A DNA stretch of 63,988 bases, counting the filler, from an uncultured bacterium (GTDB taxonomy: Bacteria; CAYJOG01), in the NCBI GenBank assembly GCA_964371695.1. It is 4 parts of 4 records of this genome, joined end to end, with 100 filler letters (N's around TTAATTAATTAA, not from the genome) between each part and the next. Parts side by side here need not be neighbours in the genome. Positions count along the whole stretch, not along the records: positions 37,594 to 55,808 come from CAYJOG010000009.1; 3 more parts are not named here. One strand, 5' to 3'. This document shows, in pieces, positions 38,963 to 63,410 of the stretch. The translations under genes and the position numbers were made by a program. A model generated the notes under the pieces. That model was given only the letters and a program-made list of their open reading frames with translations, did not search any database and was not told the DNA's origin. Each line of letters opens with the position of its first letter. Position 1 is the stretch's first letter.

Positions 38963-38999
38963 TTTTTTCCTCTGGTTTTTATTCACCCTGGCGGCGCGC

Positions 39000-41101: not shown

Positions 41102-41102
41102 A

Positions 41103-42230: not shown

Positions 42231-43553
42231 TTAGCCTCGCCTGCCCCTCACGCCCACCTGCTGTTTTTCGCGCTGGAGCTTGAAGATGTATTTCATGATG
42301 CGCTCCTTGGTGAATTCCGGCATGTTGCTGAACACCACGCCATAGCTGTACTTCCACTTGCGGTCGTGGCGCAGCTCCTGCACCCGCACCACCATGGCGG
42401 GCTGGGCCGGAAAAGCCAAGCCCTCCTCCAGCGTGAAATTGACCATGACCTCGTGGTTTTTCTCCAGTTTTTCGCGGGACTTAAAGCCCATGCCGCCACT
42501 GGAAATGTCGGTGGAAAGCGCCTCGATCTCTACCTTTTCTTCGCCGGCCTTGGGCGGCAGCCAATAGGTGTGGGCAAAGGAGACTTCTTCGCGCACCGCG
42601 CCACGCAACTGTTTTTTGAAAAGTTTGGCGGGGTGTTTGAGATAGAGCGTGCTGCCGGTGGCTTTTTCCACCGTGGCCGCAAACCGGTAACCCGCGCCCC
42701 GGCTTTGCCAGTTCACGTTCACATGGCCACCAGTCTGAAACCGCCCGCCCACGCGCTCGCTGGGCGGAAACCCCACCACGAGATGGCCGGGCGAAACATC
42801 GTCCAGGTTGCCCAGCAGCTTGTGGCCGTGTTCGTCGCTGATGTCCAGCATCTGGCCCACGGGCAAAAGCTCGGTGCCCACCCGGTAAGGTTCCTGATCC
42901 CACAACTCTTCCTTTTTCTGGGGAATGGCGATGGCGTGCGCGCCTTTTTTGGCCTTGAGTTTTTCGTAATCGGCCCGCATGGCCGTGATGGTTTCCACGC
43001 CCCAGCGGCTCAGGCGGTCCACGTGGGCCTGCGTAACCTGAGTGCCCTGGTGCAGCATGACCGCGCCGCGCACCTCCACCGGCTGCGCCAGCACCAGACC
43101 ATCCAGAATCTGGTTGATGGGCACCTGCACATAGGGGCTGCCCTCTTCGCCGCGCACCTCGGCGGGGGGGCCTTCTGCGCCCTCTGGCGGCGCAGGGGGC
43201 ACGATTTTTTCAATGCGCGGCACGATTTTTTCGGCGTCCACCGGCGCGAGCCAGAAATCGTTGACGCCATATTTCTTGGCCTTGAGCAGGTTTTCCTTTT
43301 GGGCGACATTGCTGAGAATGGCCACCTGAGCGTCGGGGTTGAACTCACGCATGAGCATGAGCGCGGGGGTCTGGTCTTCTTCGGGCAGGCGTTGCAGCAA
43401 AATCACCAGGGCCGGGTCTTCGGTGATCACCTCGGCCACCTCCACCTGCTCGCCGGGGCCGGGTTTCACGCCATAACCCTTTTTTTCAAGGGCGCTGCGC
43501 AGGGGCGCGAACTCTTCTTCGGGCCATGTGCCGATGAGCCAAATGTCGGGCAT
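42231..43553 (-). CDS. Receiver-like plus YcgR/PilZ domain protein
   Basis: Degenerate REC N-terminus; PilZ motifs QLRGAVR and DISSGG; ends IMKYIFKLQR. Confidence 0.85.
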   Translation of the reverse strand: MPDIWLIGTWPEEEFAPLRSALEKKGYGVKPGPGEQVEVAEVITEDPALVILLQRLPEEDQTPALMLMREFNPDAQVAILSNVAQKENLLKAKKYGVNDFWLAPVDAEKIVPRIEKIVPPAPPEGAEGPPAEVRGEEGSPYVQVPINQILDGLVLAQPVEVRGAVMLHQGTQVTQAHVDRLSRWGVETITAMRADYEKLKAKKGAHAIAIPQKKEELWDQEPYRVGTELLPVGQMLDISDEHGHKLLGNLDDVSPGHLVVGFPPSERVGGRFQTGGHVNVNWQSRGAGYRFAATVEKATGSTLYLKHPAKLFKKQLRGAVREEVSFAHTYWLPPKAGEEKVEIEALSTDISSGGMGFKSREKLEKNHEVMVNFTLEEGLAFPAQPAMVVRVQELRHDRKWKYSYGVVFSNMPEFTKERIMKYIFKLQREKQQVGVRGRRG

Positions 43554-43758
43554 GGAGGGGATTATAGAACTCATCGCGCACGTGCCATGAGATGTGAAGC
43601 AGAGATTGCGGCGGGGTGAGCCCAACCCCATGGAACCAAAAAACCAGTTGATTAAACCCGCGAGAAATTTTTTTTGAAACTCCTTTGCGGTGTCAGAGGG
43701 AAACGTTTAATTGGGTTCAGGCAAGGGAACACAACGGCAAACCCCACAAGGAGACAGC

Positions 43759-44307
43759 ATGACCCAACCCGACTCCAACCCCACCCCGGCAATGGTTTCT
43801 TCCCCCGATGAAACCACTCAGGCCGACGGTGAGGGACATGATCCTTCCACCCCCGCGCCCCAGGCCCGGCTGGCCCGGCTGGTGCGTGAGAACAAACGGC
43901 TCAAAAAAGCCCTGAAGGATCACCGCGCCCTGGGCGCAGCAGACGGATTGGCGGTTTCAGATGACGAAACCGGGCGGCTGAAGGGAGAAATCGAATCTCT
44001 TCAGCAGGCGCTGAACCTTGAGAAACAAAGTTCCCTGCTTCGTCTGGCAGCCTTTCGGTTGGGCGCGGCAGACCCTGAAGACGTGGTGAGCGCGCTCGCG
44101 GGCGAACTGGTTGAACAGTCCGCCGAAGACGCCGTGGCCGCGCTCAGGGCCCGCAAGCCCCACTGGTTCACGGGGCATGGCCCCAGCGGCATGCCAGGCC
44201 ATCCGGCGGCGGCCCCCGGCGCGGGGCCGCTTGCTGCGGCGGCGGCGCTTTTGCGCGAGCGCGGCGACACCCTGGGCCTGCTGCGCCTGGCGCAGGACGT
44301 GTTGTAA
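43759..44307 (+). CDS. Putative phage capsid scaffolding protein
   Basis: Disordered N-terminus, coiled coil (RLVRENKRLK), AVAALRARKPHWF followed by a G/P-rich tail; precedes the capsid gene; SD AAGGAG. Confidence 0.7.
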   Translation: MTQPDSNPTPAMVSSPDETTQADGEGHDPSTPAPQARLARLVRENKRLKKALKDHRALGAADGLAVSDDETGRLKGEIESLQQALNLEKQSSLLRLAAFRLGAADPEDVVSALAGELVEQSAEDAVAALRARKPHWFTGHGPSGMPGHPAAAPGAGPLAAAAALLRERGDTLGLLRLAQDVL

Positions 44308-44570
44308 TACCAATTTCCAACCAAAATAACATTAACTCTGAGCGATGAACCGGTTTGGAAACGGGTGCTGCGAAGTCAGACGGTTCGGTGAAAATTGGTA
44401 TGAATTCATGGATGAATTCAACTCGAACACCGAGGCCCAGACAGGGCCGGAGGTGTTCGCGGCGCAAGCGGGCTTTGCCTGCGCCGCGCCGGGCCGTAGC
44501 CATTCACGACGAATGGCAAGGCCAATAAAACCAATGAACATTCCTGCTATTTTGAATGTTCATTGGTATA
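44305..44570. mobile_element. MITE-like palindromic element with (T)ATACCAAT termini
   Basis: ATACCAATTT/AAATTGGTAT and ACCAATGAACATTC/GAATGTTCATTGGT inverted repeats; starts at the scaffold stop codon. Confidence 0.6.
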
Positions 44571-44789
44571 AAGACCCCGAAGGAGTGGGTGCGGTGTCCC
44601 CACCGCACACAAACCAAAAGAAAAGCAAGGGTTTTGCCATTCGCGGCGGTGTGGACACCGCCGCTACTCCGAAAAAGTCAGCACTGATGGGCAAAACGCC
44701 CTGATCACTGCGGACTTGTTGTCCGCGCCTTTTCCGCCGCTTTTTTCCGTCAAACCCAACCCCCACCCACCATTTTTGAGGAGGACTTC

Positions 44790-45920
44790 ATGGCTTATCC
44801 CACCGGTTATCAGGAACTGGGCAACACCCCGGTTGTGACCTACGACGAAATTTTCCGCCGCATCATTCAAGAGGCGGGCGGCATCAAGGCCCGCATTCAG
44901 GATGACCCCATTCAGGCCGACACCGACGGCGAATCGCTGGTGTATTACGACCGCGTCATCCGCCCCACCTACACCTCTCTCAGCGCCGCCGCCACGGTGG
45001 GGGCCACCACCCTTTCGGTGACGAGCGAGGCGGGCTTTTTTGTGAACGACCTCATCCAGGCCGAGAACAGCGCCGAGGTGATTCGTGTGACCGCCGTGGC
45101 CGCAGGCAGCCTCACGGTGAGCCGCGGCTTTGGCGGCAGCACCGCCGAGGCCATCGCAAACAGCACACGCCTCAACCGCATCGAACGCGCCAATCTGGAG
45201 GGCGACGCCGGTTATGACACCGCCGCCAACCCCGCCACACCGCGCACCAACGAATTCTGGCGCGCCCATGTGGTGTATGGCGTGACCGGCGACAACGAAG
45301 CCACCGCCCACCACGGCGGCCTGCCTGCAGGCACGAAACTGGCTTTTGAGCAGCGCGAGGCGCTCATCCGCGTGATGTACGGTTTTGAGCGGATGCTGCT
45401 TTATGGTGTGCAGCAGCGCGCCACCAAGGCCCAAGGGGGCAGTTTTCAGGGCCTTTTGCAAAGCATTGGCCTGCACAGCGCGGGCGCGGCGGTGCAAAAC
45501 ACCGTGGGGGCCATCACCAGCGACAAACTCACCCAGAGCGTGGAGCGCATCGCCACCCGTGGCGGCAACCCCAACGCCATTTACCTGCACCCCACGTTGA
45601 TTGGCCCACTGGTGGATGAACTTTCCGCCAACCTCACGGTGGACTCATCCAACGACACCCTGGGCCTGGTGGTGCGGCGGTTTGTGGCCGAAACAGGCCA
45701 CGTGCTGGCGCTGGTGCCCGACCGCAGCATCAACCCCCAGCACGTGGTGGTGCTGGACGAAACCATGCCCACGCTGGTGTGGAAACGCCGCATTGGCGTC
45801 ACCGATCTGGCGCAGGACGCCAACGACCAGCGCCGCCAGAAACTCAACTTTCAGGTGTCGCTGCAATATCCCAACGCCGGCGAAACCGCCGAGTGGCTCA
45901 AGGGCGTGACACCCGCTTAA
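44790..45920 (+). CDS. Putative major capsid protein (DUF5309/SU10-like, HK97 fold) with inserted beta domain
   Basis: ANLEGDA, RTN, FERMLLYG, GLLQSI, GGNPNAIY, LVPDRSI, DLAQD, KGVT end; 376 aa; SD GAGGAGG. Confidence 0.8.
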   Translation: MAYPTGYQELGNTPVVTYDEIFRRIIQEAGGIKARIQDDPIQADTDGESLVYYDRVIRPTYTSLSAAATVGATTLSVTSEAGFFVNDLIQAENSAEVIRVTAVAAGSLTVSRGFGGSTAEAIANSTRLNRIERANLEGDAGYDTAANPATPRTNEFWRAHVVYGVTGDNEATAHHGGLPAGTKLAFEQREALIRVMYGFERMLLYGVQQRATKAQGGSFQGLLQSIGLHSAGAAVQNTVGAITSDKLTQSVERIATRGGNPNAIYLHPTLIGPLVDELSANLTVDSSNDTLGLVVRRFVAETGHVLALVPDRSINPQHVVVLDETMPTLVWKRRIGVTDLAQDANDQRRQKLNFQVSLQYPNAGETAEWLKGVTPA

Positions 45921-45954
45921 CCCGCTCTTTTCTGCAACCAGGGTTTTCCTCTCT

Positions 45955-46141
45955 TTAAACCTGTTTATAAAGTCCGTCGTGGACTTTATAAACCCAACGC
46001 CTTCAGGGGCAAAGCCCCCTCGGCGTGGCGAAAACCTCCGCTTTTTCGAAGCTCCGGTTTTCGAGGGCGGTCATCCATGACCGCAAGAGCCTGTTTGATA
46101 TGCGCCATGTTGTTACACAGTGCATTTTATAAACAGGCTCT
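45955..46141. repeat. Hairpin repeat (AAAGTCC...GGACTTT family) plus AGAGCCTGTTT mini-element
   Basis: GTTTATAAAGTCCGTCGTGGACTTTATAAAC; related hairpins at about 19148-19175, 34904-34929, 4243-4274 and 22357-22389. Confidence 0.7.
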
Positions 46142-46397
46142 TTGTTCCGCCAACCGTGAAATGGCTTTGCAAGACGCCACCCCACCTGAGCCGGTTTATC
46201 CGTCATCAGAAAAAGAAAAGCAGCGTTCTTCGGCCACCGCACCAAAACCACACGGCGCAGAACTTTCCCCTCACCTCACGAGAACCCTGGCATATCCGAA
46301 TAACGGGGGCGGAACCCCGCCCCCTTTTCTTTCTCCCAAAGCGCATCACCAGACACGGGCGGCGGGAACAACTGTTCATGGCCTCTGACGCTGGATT

Positions 46398-46549
46398 CCC
46401 CCTCTCCCCTTTAATGGGGAGAGGGTTGGGGTGAGGGGTTTATTCAAAGAACAAAAACCAATCAGATGTTTTTTTTGTTTGAACCCCTCACCCGGATGAA
46501 CTGGCCAAAAAGAAGCCAGTCAATCCGACCTCTCCCTCAAGGGGAGAGG
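46398..46549. repeat. Family B REP doublet (CCCTCTCCC...GGGAGAGGG.TGGGGTGAGGG)
   Basis: Closely similar composite at 51883-52023; related copies at 53693-53712, 59235-59443 and 37399-37420. Confidence 0.85.
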
Positions 46550-46625
46550 TGACGATGGGAGCCTCTCCCCGCCAGGGAGCCACAGCAAACCCGCCCTCTT
46601 TTTTCTTCCACGAAAGGACACGGCA

Positions 46626-46868
46626 TTGAACCTCCTTTTCATGCTCACGCTTTCTGAAAACGGCCTGCCCCCCGCCACTGTTGCGGCGGCCCTGTCAGAC
46701 CCCACCGTGGAGTTTCGCCTGTTACGTCACCACACACAGCCCCAGGCCATTTTGCGCACTGATCTGGAACTGGCCCCGGCTGAAGGCGTAGAGGTTCTTT
46801 CTGCCCAGCAGGCCCAGGGGTTTTATGACGCCGGGGGTTATGAAGAAATCGCCGGGGGGGTGGTGTGA
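46626..46868 (+). CDS. Small hypothetical protein of the phage-like cluster
   Basis: SD AAGGA before TTG; stop overlaps the next start (TGATG). Confidence 0.65.
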   Translation: MNLLFMLTLSENGLPPATVAAALSDPTVEFRLLRHHTQPQAILRTDLELAPAEGVEVLSAQQAQGFYDAGGYEEIAGGVV

Positions 46869-48019
46869 TGCCCGGCCCCAACATCCTTTTGAGCGACACC
46901 CTGCGCGCCGCCGATCCCCTCAAGTGGCAGGCCGTGTTCACCGGCGCACAGCACGCCTACGCCCCTGACGGTCTTTTGACCTATGGTGCAGCGGCTTACC
47001 CCAACTACGGCCTCGTCAGCCTGGGAACCTTCAGCCGCACCAACCTGGTGCTGGTGTTCACCCAGGCGGCTTATCTGAACACCATCGGCAATTTTTTCGG
47101 CTACGCCAACGATTTGCCCGGCACACTGCGGGCCATACAAAACGGCACCTTCGCTGCCCTGAACAACGACCGGATTTTTGGTTACGGTTATTCCGGCGGC
47201 GTGCTGGTGGAATCGGTGAACGGCGGCACGGTGTTGCAAAGCACCGCCCCCGTGCAGCGATTCTGGGGCGCCATGAAACTGCTGGGCACCGGCGCGTTGA
47301 TCAAATGGCGCAAGGGCGACGCCGGCCCCTGGACCGCCGCCACCAACAACCCCGCCACCGGCAGCGCCACCAACCTGAACGTGGTGGTGGGCGTGCCTTA
47401 TTCCGCCGGTGTGGGCGTGGTGTGGGGCGTGGCGGCAGAGCAGAGCGATGGGGATTTCAGCGACGCACGCCTCGACGCCATCGTCACCGCCGCCAACCTC
47501 CGGCCCGGTTACGCCGCCGCCAACCCGCGCCACACCCTGGCGGCCCGCGCCCTGCAAATCGGCCGCAGCAACGTGGTGACGGTGGAGTTGCAGGACGGCG
47601 ACCGACCCCTCACCGGCGTCGCCCCCGCCGAAGTGGCCTGCACACTGGTGAAAAACGGCGTGGCCGGCGCAAAAACTTTGACCGCGCTCAACTTCACCGA
47701 AGTGGACGCCGTGAACGCGCCGGGGCTTTATCGCCTCGTCCTCGACAAAACCGACGTGAACGCCCTGGGTGAACTGGTGGTGATGGTGACGCCCCCCGCC
47801 GGTTCGTGGCGGTTTGCGCCCTTCAAGGCCCGCTGCGAAGTGACCGCGCTGGAGGCCATGACGCTGAACGCCAAAACCGCCGGCCTGAGCGGCCTTGTCA
47901 CGGTGAAAGACGCCGACGGCCTGCCGCTTTTCAGCACGCAATACAAACGGGTGGACACACAGGACATGACCCTGCCCGCCACGCATTTTGGCGGCCACGG
48001 CGGATGGAGCCAGACATGA
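46868..48019 (+). CDS. Putative virion accessory or decoration protein (beta-rich, two domains)
   Basis: G/A/T/N-rich; C-terminal FTEVDAVNAPGLYRL motif reminiscent of virion Ig-like domains; coupled to its neighbours. Confidence 0.6.
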   Translation: MPGPNILLSDTLRAADPLKWQAVFTGAQHAYAPDGLLTYGAAAYPNYGLVSLGTFSRTNLVLVFTQAAYLNTIGNFFGYANDLPGTLRAIQNGTFAALNNDRIFGYGYSGGVLVESVNGGTVLQSTAPVQRFWGAMKLLGTGALIKWRKGDAGPWTAATNNPATGSATNLNVVVGVPYSAGVGVVWGVAAEQSDGDFSDARLDAIVTAANLRPGYAAANPRHTLAARALQIGRSNVVTVELQDGDRPLTGVAPAEVACTLVKNGVAGAKTLTALNFTEVDAVNAPGLYRLVLDKTDVNALGELVVMVTPPAGSWRFAPFKARCEVTALEAMTLNAKTAGLSGLVTVKDADGLPLFSTQYKRVDTQDMTLPATHFGGHGGWSQT

Positions 48020-48144
48020 CCCCCGACCTCTTTGCCCTGGGCCAGAGCCCCGACGGCTCGGACATCATCGTGTCCAACACACTGGCGGAACTGACCCTGG
48101 AACTCAAAAACAACGACATCGCCTTGGAGGTGGAAGAAACATGA
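48016..48144 (+). CDS. 42-aa hypothetical peptide
   Basis: ATGA overlaps at both ends; SD GGAG. Confidence 0.6.
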   Translation: MTPDLFALGQSPDGSDIIVSNTLAELTLELKNNDIALEVEET

Positions 48145-48488
48145 GCACCGCCGTGAAACAGGTGTTTTACAACGAAGGCCCCACCACGGTGACCGTGCGC
48201 CTTTTGAGCGACGGCGCGGCGCTGGACCTGACGGCCTATGACACCGTGGCCCTTGAGCTGCGCGACAGGCCCATCACGCTGGGCACCGACACGCCCCAGC
48301 TCAGCGTCACCGGCTGGTTTGTGGATCAGGCCGGGGGGCGCGTGTCTTTTGATGTGGCTGCGGCCCACACCGTGTCGCTGGGGCTGGGGCGGTTTTCAGC
48401 CCAGGTGGTCTGCTCCAACGCCGGTGGCGACAGGATCAAAAGCCCGCTGTTCACGCTGGTGATCAAGGGAGGAACCTCTGGTGTCTGA
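48141..48488 (+). CDS. Small beta-sandwich virion protein (BppU N-terminal-like)
   Basis: TVRLLSDGAALDLT...VDQAGGRVSF...GRFSAQV pattern; SD GGAGG. Confidence 0.55.
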   Translation: MSTAVKQVFYNEGPTTVTVRLLSDGAALDLTAYDTVALELRDRPITLGTDTPQLSVTGWFVDQAGGRVSFDVAAAHTVSLGLGRFSAQVVCSNAGGDRIKSPLFTLVIKGGTSGV

Positions 48489-48900
48489 ACCCTTTTCCTT
48501 CATCCTCACCGCCACCGACGTGCTGTTGGAAGAACCCCAGGCCCTCACCCTCAGCCCGCACCCCGACGACCAGAATCTGGCCACGCTCATTCAGCGTCAG
48601 GGCGACGTGTTGCTGCGCAAACTGCGCCAGCGGGGCGTGGACCCGGCCGCCCTCACCAGCGCCGCCGACACGCTGGTGCGCGAGATGCATCTCTATCAGG
48701 TGTTGTGCGCGCTTTATGCCCGCGCCATGCGCTCGGCGGGCGACCGTTATCACCTGCTGCTGCAACACTATGAGCGCGAGCTGGACAACGCCCTGGAGCG
48801 CGAGGCCTTGGGCCTGGACACCGACGCCGATGGCGCAACCGACACCGAAGGCAGCGCACGCCTGCGGGCCACGCGGCTGAAAACAGAGGTGAGCGAATGA
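48481..48900 (+). CDS. Putative head-tail adaptor/connector
   Basis: 139 aa, helical, ends in LDTDADGATD; position after the capsid; SD GGAGG. Confidence 0.55.
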   Translation: MSEPFSFILTATDVLLEEPQALTLSPHPDDQNLATLIQRQGDVLLRKLRQRGVDPAALTSAADTLVREMHLYQVLCALYARAMRSAGDRYHLLLQHYERELDNALEREALGLDTDADGATDTEGSARLRATRLKTEVSE

Positions 48901-49325
48901 CCACCTGGACCACCATTCACAACGCCTTCTGCAAAAAACTCGTGGACCTGGGTTATCGCCCCCTCGGCTCCCTGGACATTGGCGAGGCCACCTTTGGTGA
49001 ACTGGACGGCGGCTTTGGCGTGAGCGCCCTGGACGTGACCTTGGCCGAGCAGAACGTGAACGGCACCATGGACCGGGAATATCACGTGCGCGTCACCCTC
49101 ACCAGGCTGCTGGATCAATCCCGCCGCGCCGCCTCGGTGCAGGACCTGGTGGGACAGGAAGAAACCGTGGTGGCGGCGTTGTGTTCTTTTCCGTGGTATC
49201 GGGGCGAAGGCCTGCGCCGGGTGTTGTTCGAGCACACCGTTTTTCAGCACCAGTCCCGTGGCGTGGCCGGTTCCGTGGCCGTGGCCGAAGCCGATTTTCT
49301 TGTTCTTGTCCGCATGGGGGTTTAG
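48897..49325 (+). CDS. Putative tail terminator / head-tail completion protein
   Basis: 142 aa alpha/beta protein immediately before the tail tube; assigned mainly by synteny. Confidence 0.45.
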   Translation: MTTWTTIHNAFCKKLVDLGYRPLGSLDIGEATFGELDGGFGVSALDVTLAEQNVNGTMDREYHVRVTLTRLLDQSRRAASVQDLVGQEETVVAALCSFPWYRGEGLRRVLFEHTVFQHQSRGVAGSVAVAEADFLVLVRMGV

Positions 49326-49776
49326 GCGGCCTGAAACAATTGAGGGAGCAGGCGCAGTGTCCCCACCGTGCACAGACCACAAAAAAACCGGGCGTTTTTT
49401 TATTGTGACCTCACCCGGTTTTTCTTTTGGCCGTGGGGGGGGGGGGGGGGGCGCCGCGGCCGCATAAAAAATAAAAAAAAAAAAGATNNNNNNNNNNCCC
49501 CCCGTTTTTTTTTTTTGGGCGGGGGGGGGGGCCCCCCCCCCCCTAAAAAAAAAAACCAAAATTTTTTTTTTTTTGGGGGGGGGGGGGCCCCCCCCCGCCC
49601 CACTGAAAGAAAACAGAAAAAGAAAACAAAAAAGGTGTGGTGTTTTTGTTTCAACTGGCTTCCCGCTTTCGCGGGAATGACGACGGGGGAGACGAGAGCC
49701 TTTTTCTTTTCCAACCTCCGACTTCCAACTTCCATCCCCCTGTTTTCAACCACCAACTTCCACCCAAGGAGCTTCC

Positions 49777-51153
49777 ATGACCAGTCCCTATCCCGTTCGT
49801 CTCACACAGGCCCTGATGGCGGTGGAAAACAGCCCCGGCACAGACGCCGTGGCCCGCACCGTGACGCTGGAAGGAACCGTGAACGGCGTCAACACTGCCT
49901 TTGACATTCCAGAAAGCCACTTGGCCTACCAGCAGGTGGTGGGCAATGACTTCACCGCCTACAAAGACGGCGTGGCCGACAACGCCGCCACCTTTGCTGA
50001 AGGCACGGGCGCGGGCGGGCGGGACAGGCTCAACTTCAGCGTCGCCCCCGCCACCAGCGCCGCCGCCCGCGTGCTGCAGGGCGCGCCGCTCAACCTGGGG
50101 GCCTTTGCGCTGGAAACGGACATCACCCCCGTGGCCCGCGTGGCCTACACCCAGGGGCTGGACACTCCCGCGCCCAGGCCGGGACAGGTCAAGTCTGCCG
50201 CCCAGTTTGAAATGCCCCTGATGGCCGGTGTGAACGCCACACGCCCGCCCCCCATCGCGCCGGTGCTGAAAGCGGCGGGTTTTGACGAAACACAAAACGG
50301 CGCGGTGTGGACCTATGCCCTGAGCGCCGCACCCGCACCCGCCACGTTTTATGCCTGGCTGGGGGCCACCGTGCGCCGCCTGACGGGCGCGCTGGCGGAT
50401 GTGGATTTTGTATTCGAGGCAGGCCAGGCGGCCGTGGCGCGGGTGCTGCTGAACGGGGGGTTTCTTTCACCCGTGGATGCGGATTATCCCACTGGTCTTT
50501 CGCTGCCCGCCGGCCTGGAGCCGCTGTGCGAAAACATGGACCTCACCCTGGGCGACGACGCCCTCAGCGTCACCATCAACAACGCTGGGGGCTACACGGC
50601 GGCGGACACCACGCTGGTGCTGGTGTCCACCACGGGACTTGCAGCGGGGGATCTGCTGCGGGTGGAAACCACAGGTGAAATCCTGAAGGTCTCTGCCGTG
50701 GATTCCGCCACAACCGTTACGGTTTCGCGGGCAGAGCGCGCCACGGCGGCGGCGGCCGTGGCCAATGGCGCGGCACTGCGGCGGCTTTACCGGGTGGTGT
50801 GCCCGCGACTTTCACTCTCGCTCGGCAACGAACACGCCGACCGGCAGGACATGAACAGCGCCTTTGGCCTGAAGGGCCGCCTGATGACAGGCCGCACCGC
50901 CACCCTGAGCGTGGACATCGAGCCGATGACCGAAAACGAAAGGGCCTTCTGGCAGGACTTCGCCAGTCAACAGGCCGTAGCCATCGGTTTTTCGCTGGGC
51001 TTTGCCGCCGGAGAAAAAGTGGCCATCACGCTGCCCGCCGCCCGGCTCATCAAACCCCAGGACAAAAACGACAAGGAGAACTGGCTCTATTCGCTGGACT
51101 TCGCACTGGAAAAAACCGCCAGCGCCGCCGCCCTGACGCTTACGTTTTATTGA
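49777..51153 (+). CDS. Putative major tail tube protein with two inserted domains
   Basis: AVENSPGTD start, PPIAPVLKAAGF, ATFY, LTGA, LSLGNE, TGRT, TLTFY end; SD AAGGAG. Confidence 0.75.
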   Translation: MTSPYPVRLTQALMAVENSPGTDAVARTVTLEGTVNGVNTAFDIPESHLAYQQVVGNDFTAYKDGVADNAATFAEGTGAGGRDRLNFSVAPATSAAARVLQGAPLNLGAFALETDITPVARVAYTQGLDTPAPRPGQVKSAAQFEMPLMAGVNATRPPPIAPVLKAAGFDETQNGAVWTYALSAAPAPATFYAWLGATVRRLTGALADVDFVFEAGQAAVARVLLNGGFLSPVDADYPTGLSLPAGLEPLCENMDLTLGDDALSVTINNAGGYTAADTTLVLVSTTGLAAGDLLRVETTGEILKVSAVDSATTVTVSRAERATAAAAVANGAALRRLYRVVCPRLSLSLGNEHADRQDMNSAFGLKGRLMTGRTATLSVDIEPMTENERAFWQDFASQQAVAIGFSLGFAAGEKVAITLPAARLIKPQDKNDKENWLYSLDFALEKTASAAALTLTFY

Positions 51154-51193
51154 ACCTGAAGCGCTACACAATCCCCCCATCAAAGGAGCCGCC

Positions 51194-51586
51194 ATGGCCA
51201 TCAAACTGCTTCACCCCAACAAGCTGCTGCCCTTCTCGCTGGCGGGCGACACCGCCGAGCCGCGCACACGTTTCATGCTGCGGATGCTTTCTTCAGCCCG
51301 CCGCGACCTGTGGCTGGAGGAACTTTCCGGCCCCATGTCCCTCACCGAAAAAGACCCCCTGCGGCTTTTGGCGGCAGACCGATGGCGGGCGCTTTTTGGC
51401 GAGGTGGTGGCCGAGGTGCGCCACGTGGATCTGGACGACGGCCATGGCTGCCGCACGGTGAAGGGCGGCACAGCCGATTTTGACCAGATCAACCAGCGCC
51501 TGCCCGCCGAGGTGGTGGTGGAGGTCGCGAGCGCAGGACTGCTGGCCAACACGCTGAGCACACAGGAAAAAAAAGACTGCGCCTGA
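51194..51586 (+). CDS. Tail assembly chaperone (gpG-like)
   Basis: Between tube and tape measure; ends NTLSTQEKKDCA across an A8 run; SD AAGGAG. Confidence 0.75.
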   Translation: MAIKLLHPNKLLPFSLAGDTAEPRTRFMLRMLSSARRDLWLEELSGPMSLTEKDPLRLLAADRWRALFGEVVAEVRHVDLDDGHGCRTVKGGTADFDQINQRLPAEVVVEVASAGLLANTLSTQEKKDCA

Positions 51587-51876
51587 CGTGGCGGTTTTTG
51601 CGCCACGCGGATTCCTGGCGCTGTCAGGATGCCCCCTGCCAGACCCCCGCTGGCCGCGCCCACCACGGCTGCACCGGCCCGGCACAGAGAGCCATCTGGA
51701 AAGACCTGGGCGAAACGCTCACCCAGTGCCCCCTGAGCGAGGGCTGGATGGATGGTCTGGCCCCTGTTCTTAAGTCCGTTTTGTCTTTTCACCTCACGGG
51801 CCTGGCCCCCGCCGGAGCCAGCCAGTGGCGCAACCCCGCCGTGTTCATGGACGCACTGGAGACCCTGGTTTTTTGA
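51567..51876 (+). CDS. -1 frameshift extension (gpGT-like, Cys-containing)
   Basis: Slippery A_AAA_AAA at 51568-51574; the -1 frame is open to TGA 51876 and has no SD of its own. Confidence 0.7.
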
Positions 51877-52080
51877 GGCAATCCCCTCTCCCCTTCAATG
51901 GGGAGAGGGCTGGGGTGAGGGGTTGATTCAAAAACAAAAAACCAAACAGATGTTTTTGCTTTTTGTTTTAACCCCTCACCCGCCTCGAAATGCCCAATGG
52001 GCGTTTCTCGCCGACCTCTCCCTCAAAAGAAGCGGTGAAAAACCCTTCCCCATCAACCCCTTTTGAAAGGACACCGGCCC

Positions 52081-52731
52081 ATGGCCAATGAGAATTTTCC
52101 TTCACCGGCTGAACTGGAACAAAGCCTGCAACGCGTGGCCAGTCTGCGCCAGGCGCTGGTGCAGGCCAGTGAACCCCTGCGGGCGCTTTCGGCGCAACAA
52201 CAGCAAACCTTTCAGAACATCTCCACCGGCCTGCAGGGCGTGCTGGGCAGCCACCGCGAAGTCGTGCAAGAAAGCGCTTCGCTCTGGAAAAAAGGTCTGT
52301 TTGATTTGCTGGAGGGCCGCCTGCGGTCTTTTGAAGACCTGAGCCGTCAGGTGCTGCGGTCTTTTGCCAACGAGGCCGTGAGCGCCCTGGCTGGCCTGGC
52401 GCTGAAAAAGGGCGGCGACGCGGGCGGCGTGCTCTCAGACCTGCTCACCGACGGGGGCGACGGCGGCAGCGAGGCTGGTCTGCTGAGCGCCCTGGTGGGC
52501 AAACGACAAAGCAGCCGTTCCACCGGCGACACACCCACCCGCCAGCGTATTGAAGTGGGGGGACACATCACCGTGAGCAGCCCCGACGGCACCGTGCAAC
52601 AGATGCCCCCCGAACTGGTGCAGGCCATTGCCGCACGGGCCGCACAGGGCGAAATCGAAAATCAGGTCTCAAGCGGGCGCGGCCCCCTGGGCGCACAACT
52701 GGCCGAGTTCAAACGGGCCGCACGGCATTGA
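52081..52731 (+). CDS. Very short tape-measure-like protein (216 aa)
   Basis: Helical A/L/Q/S-rich; FDLLEGRLRSFEDLSRQVLRSF, Gly-rich stretch, then a beta/alpha C-terminus; canonical position after the chaperone. Confidence 0.65.
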   Translation: MANENFPSPAELEQSLQRVASLRQALVQASEPLRALSAQQQQTFQNISTGLQGVLGSHREVVQESASLWKKGLFDLLEGRLRSFEDLSRQVLRSFANEAVSALAGLALKKGGDAGGVLSDLLTDGGDGGSEAGLLSALVGKRQSSRSTGDTPTRQRIEVGGHITVSSPDGTVQQMPPELVQAIAARAAQGEIENQVSSGRGPLGAQLAEFKRAARH

Positions 52732-52920
52732 AAAGATGGCTTCAGGCTTCAGGAAAGAAAAGGGACCATCGTCCCCTCTTCCCCACCAGGAGTAGGCGCG
52801 GTGTCCACACCGCGCACAGATTTTTGATCTTCTCGGCGACGGGGATGTCACCGCTACTCCAATAAAAACACACACCACCAGCCCTGCATCCTCCAGCCTC
52901 ACCACTGAAAGGAAATAAAA

Positions 52921-53673
52921 ATGAGCAACCCCATCACCATCCTGCCCATGGGCAGTTTTCAGGCCACCGACCAGGGCGGCCTGTATCAGTTTGGCGGACA
53001 GATTGACGCCACCGGCTGGAAGCTGTTTGGCGGCAACGTGCCCCTTTTGCTGGGCGCGCCCCTGGGCAGCACCACCAAGTTTCTGCTGGGCAATAATGAA
53101 GTCGCACAGTTCAACACCAGCGGCCTGCAACTGCCCACGGCCAAGGGGGTGGGCATTGGCGAAAGCCCGGCGGGCAAGTCGCTGGTCATCGGCAGCGCCG
53201 AGCCGGTGGCGGAACTCAAAAGCGGCCTCAAACTGGGGGCCTCGCCGGGCGCCACGCTGGACCACTACACCGAGGGCACCTTCACACCCGCCCTGGTGTG
53301 GGGCAGCGGCGGGGGCAGCTTCACCTATGCCTCACAAATCGGGCGTTACGTGCGCATTGGCAAACAGGTGAGCGTGTGGTGCCGGGTGGTGCTCTCGGCC
53401 ATCACCGAGGGCACAGGCATTTTGCAGATGACCGGCCTGCCCTTTGTGAGCAACGGCGCTTATACCCTGGCGCGCCTGGGCAACCTGCTGCACCACAACG
53501 TGGCCCAGCCCGCCGGCAGCCACTACGCCGTGTGCGAGGCCACCTATGGCGGCAACTATGTGCAGTTTTTTTCCATCCTGGAAAACGCCACCGCCCAGGT
53601 GTGGACCGCCGCCAACACGGCCCTGGCCAATAACGCCTCGCTGTATGTCACTGCGGTGTACGACACCATCTGA
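52921..53673 (+). CDS. Putative tail or head fibre, receptor-binding protein
   Basis: LDHYTEGTFTP, GRYVRIGKQV and TGLPF motifs typical of phage fibre C-terminal domains; SD AAGGA. Confidence 0.7.
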   Translation: MSNPITILPMGSFQATDQGGLYQFGGQIDATGWKLFGGNVPLLLGAPLGSTTKFLLGNNEVAQFNTSGLQLPTAKGVGIGESPAGKSLVIGSAEPVAELKSGLKLGASPGATLDHYTEGTFTPALVWGSGGGSFTYASQIGRYVRIGKQVSVWCRVVLSAITEGTGILQMTGLPFVSNGAYTLARLGNLLHHNVAQPAGSHYAVCEATYGGNYVQFFSILENATAQVWTAANTALANNASLYVTAVYDTI

Positions 53674-53782
53674 CCCGAAGTGCTGTTTTTTGCCCTCTCC
53701 CTGAGGGAGAGGGCAAGTGACAACACCACCTTGAACCCAACGCCATAGCAAAAACAGACCCTCACAAAAAAAGGAGAAACCC

Positions 53783-54049
53783 ATGGAAACAAAAATCACA
53801 CTGCTGGAACTGGTGGTGGGTGCGGGCGGGCAGGACTTCGCCCTGTTCGCAGAAAAAATCGGCTTCACCGACATGCCGGGTTTTGGCACGGTGCAAAGCC
53901 CGCCCCACCGCACACAGGTGGCCCTGCCGCCGGAACTCGTCACCCAGGTGAACGCCGTGATTGATCACGTCATCACCGCCCTGGGAGCCACCATGACACG
54001 CGAGCAGGTGAAGGCCCAGATGGCCGCCCTGCTGCCGCCGGCGGAGTAA
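53783..54049 (+). CDS. Small hypothetical protein (possible fibre chaperone)
   Basis: SD AAGGAG; follows the fibre gene. Confidence 0.6.
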   Translation: METKITLLELVVGAGGQDFALFAEKIGFTDMPGFGTVQSPPHRTQVALPPELVTQVNAVIDHVITALGATMTREQVKAQMAALLPPAE

Positions 54050-54052
54050 CCC

Positions 54053-54835
54053 ATGGGCGACATCACAATCGGCACAGCGGGCGGCGCGGGCATCGAGGTC
54101 ATCGCCACCGGCGAACTCACCGGCGCACTGCGCCTGAGCGCGGCGGCGGGCACAAATGCCGTGTGGGTGGACAGCGAACTTTTGCCCGTGGGCATTTGCA
54201 CCGGCGCGCTGGGTTTCACCGAAGTGCTGCATCAGCAGGACGCGGGCGCGGAGGTGCGTTATCTGTTCAGCACTGACCAGCGCCACACGTGGCAGCGCCA
54301 CAACGGCAGCGCCTGGGTGGCCGTGGCTGATCCGCTTTTGGGGTCATGGGCAGAGGCCAACACCGCGAGCGCCCTGACCGCTCTCGCCATGACACAACTC
54401 AAGGTGAGCACCGGCACACTGCACGTGCGCATCTGGATGAAAACCGGCACACCCGGCAACACCGTGGTGCTCAGAAACCTGAAGCTGTCGGTGGGGCCAT
54501 TCCTGCCCATCTTGGGCCTGGTGCGGCCCGACGAAAACCCACTGGACCTGCAACACGTCACCGTCATCAGCACCGGCGAAACAGGCGAGGAGGAACGCTG
54601 GCTGAAACGCAGCGCCCACCGGCGCGAGTGGGACCTGAAATGGAGCGGCCTGACACAGGAGGAGCGAGACGGTTTTGTGGCCTTTGTGGCCAGCAAGCTG
54701 AACTACACCGCCTTTGCCTGGACCAACCCGGATGACGGTGTGGAATACAACGTGCGGCTGGACGGCTGGAGCGTCTCCCCGGCGCTGGGGGCGCGGCCAT
54801 TTTTCAACGCCCAGGTCAGGCTGGTGCAGACATGA
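54053..54835 (+). CDS. Distal tail protein (DUF2460-like C-terminus) with an extra N-terminal beta domain
   Basis: TVISTGETGEEERW...RREWDLKW...AFAWTNP...YNVRL; ATGA-coupled to the hub gene. Confidence 0.65.
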   Translation: MGDITIGTAGGAGIEVIATGELTGALRLSAAAGTNAVWVDSELLPVGICTGALGFTEVLHQQDAGAEVRYLFSTDQRHTWQRHNGSAWVAVADPLLGSWAEANTASALTALAMTQLKVSTGTLHVRIWMKTGTPGNTVVLRNLKLSVGPFLPILGLVRPDENPLDLQHVTVISTGETGEEERWLKRSAHRREWDLKWSGLTQEERDGFVAFVASKLNYTAFAWTNPDDGVEYNVRLDGWSVSPALGARPFFNAQVRLVQT

Positions 54836-55650
54836 GCCGCACCCTTTCACCGGCCCTGCAAACCCTGCTGGCGGGGGGCGAATATCAGGCCGCCTATCTG
54901 CTGCGCCTGAGCGTGGGCGGCAGCGTCCTTTATCTCACCACGTGGGATGACCCCATCACGCACAACGCCAACACCTATTCGCCCAAGGGCTTCCGGTTCA
55001 AGGCCGAGGCCTATGACCGTGCGCTGAAAGAGGCCGACGGCGACATTGAAATCAGCAACGTGGGACTGGGCATTTCGGCGCTGGTGGCCAATGCGGCGCT
55101 GGGTTCGGCCACGGTGGAGATCGATCTGTTCTTCCCGGACGTGTCCGAGGCGGTGTCCATTCTGAAAGGCCGCCCGGCGCTGAAGCAGGCCAACGAAGAC
55201 ATGGCCACCTTCACGGTGATACCGGCCACGCGGCGCATGGAAGAAGACTATCCGCCCCACGCCATCAGCGCCCTGTGCCGTTGGCGTTTTGCGGATGCCG
55301 TGACGTGTCAGGCAGCCCACGGTGAACTGACCGGCCAGACGGCGGACGCGGGTTGCACCAACGCCCTGCTGGTGGACGCCGCACGCACCGAAGACACGGG
55401 TTACACCGGCCCCGGCAGTTATTGGGCCGACGGTTACGTCACCTTCACCAGCGGCGCGCTCACCGGCCACACGCGGGCCATTCAGGTGAGCGCCACGGGC
55501 AGCCTCACGCTGGAAGTGCCTTTTGATTCCGCCCCCGCCACGGGGGATCAATACACCCTGCGGCGGGGCTGCAACCGCACGTTTGAAGTGTGCGACGGGC
55601 GTTTCAACAACGTCACCCGCTTCGGCGGATTTGTGGATTTGCCGACATAA
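54832..55650 (+). CDS. Baseplate hub protein (DUF2163 / BR0599-like)
   Basis: LYLTTWD..IT....YSP, CRWRF....C, G.VTFTSGALTG, GDQYTLRRGCNRTFEVCDGRFNN..RFGGF. Confidence 0.85.
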   Translation: MSRTLSPALQTLLAGGEYQAAYLLRLSVGGSVLYLTTWDDPITHNANTYSPKGFRFKAEAYDRALKEADGDIEISNVGLGISALVANAALGSATVEIDLFFPDVSEAVSILKGRPALKQANEDMATFTVIPATRRMEEDYPPHAISALCRWRFADAVTCQAAHGELTGQTADAGCTNALLVDAARTEDTGYTGPGSYWADGYVTFTSGALTGHTRAIQVSATGSLTLEVPFDSAPATGDQYTLRRGCNRTFEVCDGRFNNVTRFGGFVDLPT

Positions 55651-55714
55651 AAACGGAATTCGGCGGCTGGAAGTCAGAGGCCAGAAAAAGCAAAAGACCA
55701 AGTCCTCCTCTGGC

Positions 55715-55741
55715 GTCATTCCCGCGAAAGCGGGAATCCAG
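55715..55741. repeat. Family A repeat at contig end
   Basis: GTCATTCCCGCGAAAGCGGGAATCCAG; another copy at 49655-49681. Confidence 0.9.
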
Positions 55742-55808
55742 TTCAAAACAAAAAATATTTTTGCCCTTTTTTACGGCGGGCGGGGACGCCCGCCCCACTG
55801 AGCAAGAG

Positions 55809-55908
55809 NNNNNNNNNNNNNNNNNNNNNNNNNNNNNNNNNNNNNNNNNNNNTTAATTAATTAANNNNNNNNNNNNNNNNNNNNNNNNNNNNNNNNNNNN
55901 NNNNNNNN
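55809..55908. other. Artificial contig linker
   Basis: N runs flanking TTAATTAATTAA. Confidence 0.98.
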
Positions 55909-56096
55909 TTGAAATTGTTGTTGCGCGGTGGGGACACCGCGCCTACTCCAAGGTTGTTGTGGCAAGACGGTTTGCGAGGAATCTTTCCAGATGCCTATTG
56001 AGGCATCTGGCCGAGCAAAGGCGATAGCGGCGTCGCGCCTACTCCAAAAAATGGACAGAAATCAGGCGTTTTTCCTTAACCTGACGGCAATGGGCT

Positions 56097-56900
56097 TTAC
56101 CCCTCCAGCATCTCCCGCAGTGCAGCGGCGGGGTCGGCCTGCTGCATCAGCGCCTGACCCACCAGCACGCCGCCATATCCCCGCTGGCGCGCCCGCACCA
56201 CGTCCTGGGGGGTTTTCAGGCCGCTCTCTGCAATGGCGTGGCCGTGGGGCGGCAGGTGGTCATACAGTTCCAGGCAGCGTTCCAGGTCAATGTCCAGCGT
56301 GTCCAGATTCCGGTTGTTCACGCCCAGCAGGGGAATGTGCCCCAGGGCGGCAAAGGCGGTGTCCAGCTCTTTTTGATCGTGGGTTTCGATGAGGCTTTCC
56401 AGCCCCAGTTCACCGGCTTCTTCAAACAGCGCCTTGAGCTGGGGAGGCGGCAGCATCCGCACAATCAGCAGAATCACGTCGGCCCCCGCCAGCGCCGCTT
56501 CATAGAGCTGCCTGCGGTCAATCATGAAATCCTTGCGCAAAAGCGGCAGCGCCACCGCCGCCCGCACGTCCCGCAGGTCCTCAAGCGAGCCGCCGAAATA
56601 TTTTTTGTCGGTGAGCACGCTGATGCCCACGGCCCCCGCCAGCTCATATCCCCGCGCCACGGCGGGCGGGTCTGCCGACTGGTTCAGCACACCGGCGCTG
56701 GGGCTTTGGCGCTTGATTTCCGCGATCACGCCAAACCCCTGCGACAGGCGCTCGCAGAGCGTGAGTCGTTTGCCGGTTTCTTGTAGCGCGAAACCCTGCC
56801 CGGCCCGCCGGGCCTCACGCAGACGGTTTTGCAGCACCGCCAGGTCCAGGCCCTGCACCTCGCGCTGTTTTTCGGCGGCGATTTCTTCAAGCAGCGCCAT
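56097..56900 (-). CDS. trpC: Indole-3-glycerol phosphate synthase
   Basis: IAEIKRQSPSAG, SVLTD.KYFGGS, LRKDF, GVNNRNL, AESG. Confidence 0.96.
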   Translation of the reverse strand: MALLEEIAAEKQREVQGLDLAVLQNRLREARRAGQGFALQETGKRLTLCERLSQGFGVIAEIKRQSPSAGVLNQSADPPAVARGYELAGAVGISVLTDKKYFGGSLEDLRDVRAAVALPLLRKDFMIDRRQLYEAALAGADVILLIVRMLPPPQLKALFEEAGELGLESLIETHDQKELDTAFAALGHIPLLGVNNRNLDTLDIDLERCLELYDHLPPHGHAIAESGLKTPQDVVRARQRGYGGVLVGQALMQQADPAAALREMLEG

Positions 56901-57900
56901 GGACCGCCCCCCGCAGTTTTTCCAGCAGGGTGTGTACCTTGCCGCTGTGCAGGGTTTCACGGGCCAGGGCCACGCCGTCTCCGGGGCTGGGGGCGAGGTC
57001 TGCCAGCCACAGGGCCACGCCGGTGTTGAGCAAGACAAACTCCGTGGGCGGCCCCGCCTCGCCTGCCAGCACACGCCGGGAAAGTTCCAGGCTGTGGGCC
57101 ACGTCCTGCACGGCCACGGCGGCAAGCGGCGCGGGCGTCACACCCAATTCTTCGGGTGTGAACGTGAGAGGTGTGGATTTTTCGCCCTCAATCAACAGAC
57201 CGGAAGTGGGGCCGCTCAGGTCAATTTCGTCCAGACCGCTTTGGGCGTGAAATACGAAGGCCCTGTCCACACCCAGAGCCTGCAACGCCTCTGCCATGGG
57301 TTGAAGCCGCCGGGCCTGACCCACCCCCAGCAGGTGACGCCGCGCCCCCAGGGGATTGGTGAGCGGCCCCAGCAGGTTGAACACCGTGGGCACACCCAGC
57401 GCCCGGCGCACGGGCATGGCGTGTTTCATGGCGGGGTGACAGGCGGGGGCAAACAGAAACACGAAGCCCGTTTCGGCGTATTGCTGCTTCAGCGCCGCCT
57501 CCTCCAGGGCCAGGGGCACGCCCAGGGCTTCCAGCAGGTCGGCGCTGCCGCACTTGCCGCTCACGGCTCGGTTGCCGTGTTTGGCCACCTTGCCGCCCGC
57601 CGCCGCCACCAGCAGACCCGCCAGCGTGCCGGTGTTCATCACGCTTTTGCCGCTGCCGCCGGTGCCGCAGGTGTCCAGGGCTTCAGGGGCCATGAAACCA
57701 AAATCCGCCGCGTTTTCGCGCATGGCGCGGGCAAAGCCGGTGAGTTCGGCGGCGGTTTCGCCCTTGAGGCTGAGGGCCGTGAGCACACCCCCCAGCAGGC
57801 CCTCGGCCACCTCGCCGCGAAAAAGCGCCTGGGCAAAGGCGTGGGCCTCGGCGGGTGTCAGGGACTGGCCCGCAAGCAGGCCCGGCAGGGGGTTTTGCAT
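56887..57900 (-). CDS. trpD: Anthranilate phosphoribosyltransferase
   Basis: DTCGTGG, KHGNRAVSGKCGSAD, FNLLGPLTNP, GLDE. Confidence 0.96.
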   Translation of the reverse strand: MQNPLPGLLAGQSLTPAEAHAFAQALFRGEVAEGLLGGVLTALSLKGETAAELTGFARAMRENAADFGFMAPEALDTCGTGGSGKSVMNTGTLAGLLVAAAGGKVAKHGNRAVSGKCGSADLLEALGVPLALEEAALKQQYAETGFVFLFAPACHPAMKHAMPVRRALGVPTVFNLLGPLTNPLGARRHLLGVGQARRLQPMAEALQALGVDRAFVFHAQSGLDEIDLSGPTSGLLIEGEKSTPLTFTPEELGVTPAPLAAVAVQDVAHSLELSRRVLAGEAGPPTEFVLLNTGVALWLADLAPSPGDGVALARETLHSGKVHTLLEKLRGAVHGAA

Positions 57901-58002: not shown

Positions 58003-59190
58003 ATGGCAGCGAAACGTCTTTTCACCAGTGAATCAGTCAGCGAAGGCCACCCCGACAAGGTTTGTGACCAGATCAGCGACACCATTCTGGACGCCTGTCT
58101 GGCCCAGGACCCCACCAGCCGCGTGGCCTGTGAAACCGCCGTCACCACCGGTCTGGTGCTGGTGTGCGGCGAAATCACCACCAAGGCCCTGTTTGACGTG
58201 CCCACCCTGGTGCGGGCGCGCATCGCCCACATCGGTTATGTCGAAGACAACATGAAGTTCGACGCCGAAGGCTGCGGCGTGATCGTGGCCATCGGCAAAC
58301 AAAGCCCCGACATCAGCCAAGGCGTGAGCAAGGCCCTGGAGCACCGCGAGGCCGAAGACGAAGCCCACGAGTTCGACGCCCAGGGCGCGGGCGACCAGGG
58401 CCTGATGTTCGGCTTTGCCTGCGACGAAACGCCGGAACTGATGCCCCTGCCCATCGCGCTGGCGCACCGCCTGATGCTGGAGCAGTCGAGCCTGCGCAAG
58501 TCGGGCACCTTGCCGTGGCTGCGCCCCGACGCCAAAAGTCAGGTGACGGTGGTGTATGAAAACGGCCGCCCGGTGTCGCTGGACACGGTGCTCATCAGCA
58601 CCCAGCACCACCCCGACGTAGACCAGCAGACCATTCACCACGAACTGAAAAAACACCTGGTGGACAAAGTGCTGCCCCAGGACCTCATCCACAACGAAAC
58701 CCGTTTTCTGGTGAACCCCACGGGCCGGTTTGTCATCGGCGGCCCCCACGGCGACGCGGGCCTCACGGGCCGCAAGATCATCGTGGACACCTATGGCGGC
58801 TACGCCCGCCACGGCGGCGGCGCCTTCAGCGGTAAAGACCCCAGCAAGGTGGACCGCTCCGCCGCCTATGCCGCCCGCTGGGTGGCCAAACATCTGGTGG
58901 CCGCAGGGGCGGCCAGCAAGGTGGAGATTCAGGTGAGCTACGCCATTGGCGTGGCCCGGCCCACCAGCGTGCTGGTGGAAACCTTCGGCACCGAAAAAGT
59001 CGCCCCCGAAAAAATCCAGAACACCGTGGACAACGTGTTTGACCTGCGCCCGGCGGCGATTCTCAAACACCTCAACCTGCGCCGCCCCATCTACACCCCC
59101 ACCGCCGCCTATGGCCACTTTGGCCGCGACGAGTTCCCCTGGGAACAACTCACCCGCCTGGACGACGTGAAGCGCGCACTGGGGAATTAG
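58003..59190 (+). CDS. metK: S-adenosylmethionine synthetase
   Basis: [42 protein letters not shown]. Confidence 0.98.
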
Positions 59191-63355: not shown

Positions 63356-63410
63356 AACCAGCGTGGCACTGTGCGCCCACCCTGGCCGCCCAGCCCGGTG
63401 AAAAATCGCC

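Follow-up and report, generated by a model that had tools for sequence, protein, structure and literature searches.

A very divergent phage-derived head–tail gene module resident in the chromosome of a sediment bacterium

The described systems that come closest to the locus reported here are the gene transfer agent (GTA) RcGTA, phages with a related capsid and phages with a related tail hub. RcGTA builds its head from an HK97-gp5-type capsid protein with a prohead protease, and its terminase and portal genes sit in the main cluster; to our knowledge, all GTAs need a terminase and a portal. As given in the excerpted text of PMC7296036, RcGTA's baseplate core consists of the hub and the megatron, and the hub, g13, carries a four-cysteine iron–sulfur domain. 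We analysed a window of 63,988 nucleotides (the whole stretch of DNA under study, in four joined contigs) from an uncultured sediment bacterium (assembly GCA_964371695.1), in which contig C (37594–55808) carries a cluster of phage-type structural genes at 43759–55650 on the plus strand. This cluster is a real, very divergent phage-derived head–tail module that has long been resident in the chromosome. We read the locus as what is left of a defective (cryptic) prophage, namely its right-hand part with the genes still intact, and give this reading a probability of roughly 45%. The original prediction had proposed a domesticated, GTA-like particle system, leaning on a lack of other phage genes next to the cluster, which on the 3′ side is the product of a contig end.

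Gene content of the head–tail cluster

Frame-specific GC content at third codon positions (GC3) and open reading frame (ORF) analysis back 13 plus-strand genes between 43759 and 55650. The co-oriented head-to-tail arrangement of the original prediction stands; its count of about 16 ORFs does not. Three ORFs (49368–49904, 49901–50221 and 50307–50678) are out-of-frame shadows of a gene for 458 amino acids (aa), three others (44345–44704, 46077–46434 and 51752–52066) lie inside repeat-filled gaps and have no coding signal, and an 80-aa ORF (46626–46868), which shows no frame-specific GC3 signal, is doubtful. Most of the proteins (8 of 13) had no match in Pfam, PHROGs or NCBIfam; NCBIfam matched none of ten cluster proteins, Rfam gave no match on contig C, and a scan for promoters and terminators did not rise above shuffled sequence (3 versus 1.4 and 17 versus 17.2, respectively). 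The predicted labels of scaffold, capsid and hub are backed by profile matches (PF06810 below threshold, PF17236, and PF09356 with PF09931), whereas those of adaptor, terminator, tube, chaperone, tape measure and fibre go back to size and position only.

At the head end, the scaffold-like gene (43759–44307; ATG at 43759, alternative TTG at 43711, with an AAGGAG ribosome-binding site) directly precedes the capsid gene, and its product aligns to profile positions 21–167 of 170 in PF06810 with E = 8.3e-6 and 26.3 bits, under the cut-off of 35. The capsid protein (44790–45920) is firmly of the SU10/DUF5309 type (PF17236, SU10_MCP; 74.9 bits, cut-off 24.1) and has the HK97 fold. Foldseek placed its AlphaFold2 (AF2) model (predicted local distance difference test (pLDDT) 76.6, from a 12-row alignment) closest to the capsid of Vibrio phage VP1 (E = 1.2e-22) and also matched the SU10 capsid (E = 2.9e-14), both with probability 1.00 and TM-scores of 0.46–0.51. 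Encapsulins are among the capsid-fold matches as well, and a reading of the gene as an encapsulin was rejected because tail genes come after it. Profile matches of the cluster proteins include no prohead protease family, in agreement with the original prediction. As encoded, the head would be a scaffold-assisted, SU10-type HK97-fold capsid made without a protease.

Four genes lie between the capsid and the putative tail genes. The 383-aa protein (46868–48019; GC3 0.83) matched no family and, by tblastn, nothing in phage records; a word-based protein search returned only the window's own protein, and the language-model atlas offered scores of ≤0.82 with immunoglobulin-like leads only. From its position, our guess is a head accessory or decoration protein. 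A displaced portal was considered for this ORF and rejected, given the lack of a portal family match and the immunoglobulin-like atlas leads. The 115-aa (48141–48488), 139-aa (48481–48900) and 142-aa (48897–49325) genes each show frame-specific GC3 and a GGAGG-type ribosome-binding site; their products match no family and, by size and position, are connector candidates.

For the 458-aa protein (49777–51153; GC3 0.78, AAGGAG site), the nearest atlas clusters are viral (scores 0.90–0.91), with PF18906 (Phage_tube_2) on 13–28% of their members, a lead towards a candidate major tail (tube) protein. Its sequence had no match in Pfam, PHROGs, NCBIfam or a PDB sequence search, a word-based protein search returned only the window's own protein, the best tblastn match in phage records reached only E = 0.03 (three records), and a single-sequence AF2 model (pLDDT 36.5) was unusable. 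The following 130-aa gene (51194–51586) contains a slippery heptamer, A AAA AAA, at 51568–51574, in phase and 12 nt before the stop codon. Beyond it, no stop interrupts the −1 frame for another 101 codons, up to 51876, and the GC3 of this frame is 0.70–0.77; a frameshifted product would have about 227 aa. A G/GT chaperone pair made by −1 frameshifting is the classic arrangement of long-tailed phages. The 130-aa gene, without a match in Pfam, PHROGs or NCBIfam, is a candidate for tail assembly chaperone G, with a predicted frameshift to GT, and the 216-aa ORF behind it (52081–52731; 222 aa from a TTG at 52063), likewise without a match in these three collections, is by position a candidate short tape measure protein. 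Two tail-associated genes follow, for 250 aa (52921–53673; GC3 0.84) and 88 aa (53783–54049; GC3 0.79); the 250-aa protein matches phrog_17970 (6.4e-8) and phrog_29288 (2.7e-5), both PHROGs of unknown function.

The cluster closes with two overlapping genes. The first, for 260 aa (54053–54835), matches PF05939 (E = 4.7e-4, under the cut-off) and the minor tail protein family phrog_14 (5.3e-5), both weakly, and on these weak matches is a candidate distal tail protein; PF09343/DUF2460 did not match, and tblastn with the 260-aa protein gave nothing in phage records. The second, the 272-aa hub (54832–55650), matches PF09356 (6.3e-18, 65.4 bits, cut-off 22.9), PF09931 (1.8e-8, 35.1 bits, cut-off 26) and phrog_778 (1.1e-25), and is 25% identical to gp82 of Roseobacter phage RDJL Phi 1, a protein that carries the annotation 'gene transfer agent orf13-like'. 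It is firmly of the RcGTA g13/lambda-gpL type, with attachment and BR0599 domains. Its translation holds five cysteines, two of them just past mid-protein and two near the C terminus, a placement that, as judged from the translation, matches the four-cysteine iron–sulfur domain of g13. Read together, these genes would specify a non-contractile tail with a large tube protein, a −1 frameshifted G/GT chaperone and a short tape-measure candidate, ending in a lambda/RcGTA-type tip of distal tail protein and iron–sulfur-type hub.

Boundaries, repeats and assembly

On the 5′ side, host genes abut the scaffold-like gene. A response-regulator/PilZ gene of the host (42231–43631, minus strand; PF07238, 2.6e-9) is divergent from the cluster, 128 bp from the scaffold start. 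An independent Logan contig from the same sequencing runs bridges 43048–44382 with no mismatch, and the junction holds no repeat; the host–cluster junction is therefore real and the PilZ gene is the true 5′ neighbour. Next to it lies a pair of minus-strand genes (40457–42227; about 42% GC) for an AbiL/PDC-M38-type ATPase and a DUF3226/TOPRIM partner (PF13175 and PF11536), with matches to PDC-M38A (3.6e-57; AAA_15 ATPase), AbiLi (1.1e-44) and PDC-M38B (3.8e-7; partner). The two genes, flanked by tldD and the PilZ gene, are a likely anti-phage defence pair of foreign origin. The contig begins with a pmbA/tldD-type metallopeptidase pair of the host (37664–39010 and 39000–40388, minus strand; PF19289, 4.1e-19 and 2.7e-42) with host-like GC3.

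The 6 kb upstream of the scaffold-like gene are thus taken up by the PilZ gene, the defence pair and pmbA/tldD, with no terminase or portal where relatives have them; host genes abut the cluster there, so that the two are not part of it. Profile scans found no terminase or portal family on contig C, nor in 20 large ORFs taken from the remaining contigs; contig C shows no integrase, att repeats, lysis module or replication module, and the window no tRNA. A defective prophage would account for the sudden switch to host genes, the lack of a portal and terminase and the defence island close by: the left-hand part of the phage, packaging genes included, would have been lost, and host genes sit there instead. 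The locus resembles cryptic prophages in that its structural genes abut host genes, that integrase and packaging genes are missing on that side and that a defence pair lies next door.

The 3′ boundary is of another kind. Contig C ends at 55808, 158 bp past the hub stop (55650), within a high-copy repeat: the interval 55651–55908 comprises a copy of a miniature inverted-repeat transposable element (MITE)-like repeat (55668–55754), the contig end and a linker, and contig depth in the last bin is 211–346, versus about 4–7 in unique sequence. The window contains 274 N, in three 44 N-TTAATTAATTAA-44 N blocks (18888–18987, 37494–37593 and 55809–55908) and one 10-N run (49488–49497). The blocks are synthetic contig linkers, because TTAATTAATTAA gives a stop in all six frames; the first three pieces descend in size (18,887, 18,506 and 18,215 bp), the fourth ends at the window end, and the first piece has exactly the length of the longest contig recorded for the window's first protein (18,887 bp). 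The window is a chain of separate contigs, and gene adjacency across linkers is therefore biologically meaningless. The genes trpC (56097–57125), trpD (56887–57900) and metK (58003–59190) lie on the next contig, past the linker, and are not true neighbours of the cluster; their proteins are recorded on contigs of up to 10,647 bp, those of contig C that were looked up on contigs of up to 34,186 bp. As a separate observation on that next contig (contig D), two genes for response-regulator receivers stand side by side at the window end (62693–63794), and one of the products has DUF6982 in its N-terminal part.

The visible module is thus incomplete at both ends: upstream, no terminase or portal occupies the customary position, and the contig end cuts the tail tip. 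The tail module was almost certainly cut by an assembly break, because RcGTA and both phages examined with a homologous hub have further tail genes after the hub. The original prediction was right that no integrase, replication or lysis gene is to be seen, but the contig ends 158 bp past the hub and the lack of such genes on the 3′ side carries no information.

This end also leaves room for a part of an intact, inducible temperate prophage of unusual gene order, with its other modules past the contig end. All genes are intact and have good translation signals, the cluster runs off the contig, and a 34,186-bp contig with identical TldD, PilZ, capsid, candidate tube and hub proteins provides about 16 kb of further sequence adjoining the region in another assembly. 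The capsid lineage, moreover, looks like a phage family: it counts 292 representatives at E ≤ 1e-3, and its structure resembles those of phage capsids. In such a prophage, however, the portal and terminase would have to sit after the tail genes, unlike in the one related-capsid phage examined; about one-fifth of the region consists of host repeats, which is unusual in a packaged genome, and five scans of 2.9 million viral contigs turned up no relative. We consider an intact prophage very unlikely.

Non-coding gaps make up about 21–23% of 43759–55808 (coding density about 77–79%). They hold short repeats, palindromic or MITE-like, of at least three families, which are also intergenic on the other three contigs and stand at 20–60x unique depth in the source runs. 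On the cluster contig, repeats occupy seven sites (44360–44680, 45988–46552, 49338–49399, 49620–49727, 51883–52039, 52778–52824 and 55668–55754), and further copies lie at 1828–2015, 24211–24280, 31915–31947, 33032–33466, 35771–35865, 37396–37434, 55922–55949, 59235–59444 and 63846–63887. The gap behind the scaffold-like gene (44308–44789) is filled with repeats (bin depth 73–128, versus about 4–7 in flanking unique sequence), and its 44579–44677 segment matches repeats at 24211, 35771, 49342, 52788 and 55922. The gap behind the capsid gene (45921–46867; depth 25–109 in bin 45498–46105) contains repeats, a terminator-like hairpin (46305–46324) and the doubtful ORF 46626–46868; its 46398–46552 segment matches 51883–52038, 59354–59444 and 37397–37434. 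The MITE-like copy at 51883–52039 is 79% identical to 46399–46552 over 159 nt and 82% identical to 59354–59443 on another contig. The gap before the candidate tube gene (49326–49776) combines a repetitive extragenic palindrome (REP)-like repeat, a MITE-like repeat, the scaffold gap of ten N (49488–49497) and homopolymer runs at 49425–49620 (G17, T12, G11C12, A11 and similar around the N gap), where reads seem cut at 49498–49604; these runs appear to be artefacts of sequencing or assembly, not biology, and a small gene could have been lost here. Contig ends coincide with repeats, so the repeats probably cause the fragmentation of the assembly.

Repeat-mediated misjoins or collapses might, in principle, have produced the gene order itself or removed portal- or terminator-type genes. 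Five internal gaps hold repeats at 20–60x unique depth, one of them with the N gap and homopolymer junk, and contigs of the runs show many repeat-to-repeat joints. Against this, the pieces follow the canonical order of phages, an outcome not expected of random misjoining, all nine contig-C proteins looked up (tldD to hub) share the 34,186-bp longest contig in other assemblies, and the host–scaffold junction is free of repeats and cleanly bridged. An assembly artefact of this kind is extremely improbable. The sequence is contained, as contigs, in four DNA runs of one sediment-metagenome study, probably its source, at a contig depth of about 4–7x that is unsuited to ranking phage against host regions; across these four runs, the coding parts show no sequence variants, and no virome or RNA run is listed among them.

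The main present value of the locus is cautionary: contig ends in concatenated drafts can mimic 'structural-only' phage clusters. Genes that face each other across a linker are not neighbours, and neighbourhood-based findings across those points in this genome are unsafe.

Host-likeness and origin of the cluster

In composition, the cluster cannot be told from its host. Relative synonymous codon usage (RSCU) of the 13 cluster genes correlates with that of 16 host genes at r = 0.989 (one host half against the other, 0.988), and GC3 is 0.793 in the cluster and 0.786 in the host, confirming the host-like base composition reported in the original prediction; the defence island has an RSCU correlation with the host of r = −0.27 and a GC3 of 0.390. 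We read the locus as a very divergent siphovirus-type module, from head to tail tip, whose stay in the chromosome has been long enough for it to acquire host codon usage and for host repeats to move in.

Among known sequences, the cluster proteins represent a very isolated phage lineage. In a HMMER search of 1.84 billion representatives, 292 sequences were related to the capsid at E ≤ 1e-3; of these, 17 reached E ≤ 1e-10 and 5 reached E ≤ 1e-30. Protein matches to phage records cover part of the query and do not exceed about 34% identity: the best capsid matches are about 23–27% identical (14 records) and hub matches 21–34% (45 records), and none of the 14 capsid-match records is among the best 15 of the 45 hub-match records. 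The whole cluster had no megablast match in 50,697 phage records. Related loci were found neither in genome contigs (queried with the capsid alone and a 5-row alignment) nor in metagenome contigs (alignment query), and the search of 2.9 million viral contigs that found no relative used the alignment, the hub, the candidate tube and two other proteins. No publication in the collection searched mentions both 'DUF5309' and 'gene transfer agent'.

Full-length copies do exist in other assemblies: capsids at 96.0% and 95.2% identity, the 250-aa protein at 93.6% and two hubs at 90.4%. A further capsid, from an NCBI record, is 73.5% identical. For host proteins of comparable source, the identities are 93.7% (TldD), 92.7% (PheS) and 94.0% (NAGidase), a comparison in which the copies at ≥90% identity sit on 1–3 kb contigs that do not establish a single organism or the same locus.

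Several of these observations weigh against a defective prophage. Typical prophage remnants show broken genes. Here all 13 ORFs are open and their signals intact, most with strong AGGAG-type ribosome-binding sites and with the slippery heptamer in phase, and they are apparently conserved in other assemblies; none of the seven repeat sites interrupts a gene, all being intergenic. If the copies come from one related organism, they are no more diverged than housekeeping proteins, which would point to purifying selection and against neutral decay, and such selection would fit a phage that is still active as well as a domesticated system. A loss of the left-hand part accounts less well for the intactness of the 13 genes and the conserved copies than for the host junction, and the packaging genes may lie elsewhere in the genome, outside the four contigs read.

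The same observations bear on the proposal of a domesticated, host-maintained GTA-like particle system, with packaging genes and the rest of the tail tip elsewhere or past the contig end. Codon usage indistinguishable from that of the host speaks for it, and at least three host repeat families have settled at seven intergenic sites while ORFs, ribosome-binding sites and slippery site stayed intact, yet the repeats may target intergenic hairpins themselves, so that their placement need not reflect selection. The coding density of about 77–79% suggests freedom from packaging-size pressure, the tape-measure candidate is short (216–222 aa), and the sequence just upstream carries host genes without an integrase or tRNA; the terminase and portal, however, are absent from the cluster, and its 'structural-only' look on the 3′ side comes from the contig end. 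Copies that are 90–96% identical diverge like host proteins of similar sources, and the lack of any DNA match in phage records, together with the low identity of the partial protein matches, also counts in its favour, but the relatives' copies may stem from a circulating phage. On balance we hold a host-maintained particle system to be unlikely, although it would matter if real: a GTA lineage with another type of head would come to light outside the cultured groups known for GTAs, and repeat colonization with intact ORFs could then flag domestication in metagenome-assembled genomes. The more specific proposal, of an independently domesticated and vertically inherited particle system that combines a scaffold and SU10-type capsid with an RcGTA-like tail tip, keeps its packaging genes at another locus and is selected by the host, is distinctly unlikely; if true, it would define a new GTA lineage whose head is unrelated to those of all described GTAs.

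Comparison with phages and RcGTA

At the head end, Vibrio phage 1.289.A (MG592658.1) has a capsid of the same family with a scaffold-like gene directly before it, at a capsid identity of only about 26%, and Vibrio phage VP1 and Escherichia phage SU10 share the capsid fold by structure. In phage 1.289.A, the one such phage examined, genes for the small terminase, large terminase, portal and head morphogenesis precede the scaffold and capsid genes, whereas in the cluster host genes take that place. The first 30 kb of phage 1.289.A gave no match to the hub.

At the tail end, homologous hubs are found in Roseobacter phage RDJL Phi 1 (NC_015466.1; 25% identity, E = 7e-9) and Acinetobacter phage Effie (MW176033.1; 21% identity, E = 5e-11), each with a small gene in the distal-tail position before the hub. 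In both phages the order is tape measure, small protein, hub, peptidase/minor tail protein and large tail protein, the last of about 830 aa in Effie and about 1360 aa in RDJL Phi 1; in the cluster, this position lies beyond the contig end. Their tape measures, of about 1030 and 1120 aa (spans of 3090 and 3369 nt) in RDJL Phi 1 and Effie, respectively, are far longer than the candidate of 216–222 aa, and no cluster protein besides the hub matches either phage. In passing, we observed that gp78 of RDJL Phi 1 (506 aa; 876–2396 of the stretch examined), annotated 'major capsid protein', has the tail terminator on one side and the chaperone/tape-measure genes on the other, the place of a major tail protein, and is near in size to the 458-aa candidate tube; it may be misannotated.

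With RcGTA, the cluster shares co-oriented structural genes in head-to-tail order and a hub gene that comes right after a (here candidate) distal-tail gene. A tape-measure candidate of small size and a candidate chaperone gene with a frameshift site are further points in common. Its hub carries the same two Pfam domains as g13, with cysteines placed as in the iron–sulfur domain described in the excerpted text of PMC7296036. Beyond the hub the two systems part. Only 1 of the 13 cluster proteins, the hub, has detectable homology to an RcGTA-family domain; of the g12–g15 set only the g13-type hub is matched, and the positions of g14 and g15 fall beyond the end of contig C. Two extra genes stand between the tape-measure candidate and the distal tail protein, and the cluster is without terminase and portal. 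As the original prediction had recognized, the head differs from that of RcGTA: the cluster encodes an SU10/DUF5309-type capsid with a scaffold-like gene, and no protease, portal or terminase family was matched among its proteins. The locus is not a member of the RcGTA (type I) family, because only its hub is homologous and its head is of a different type.

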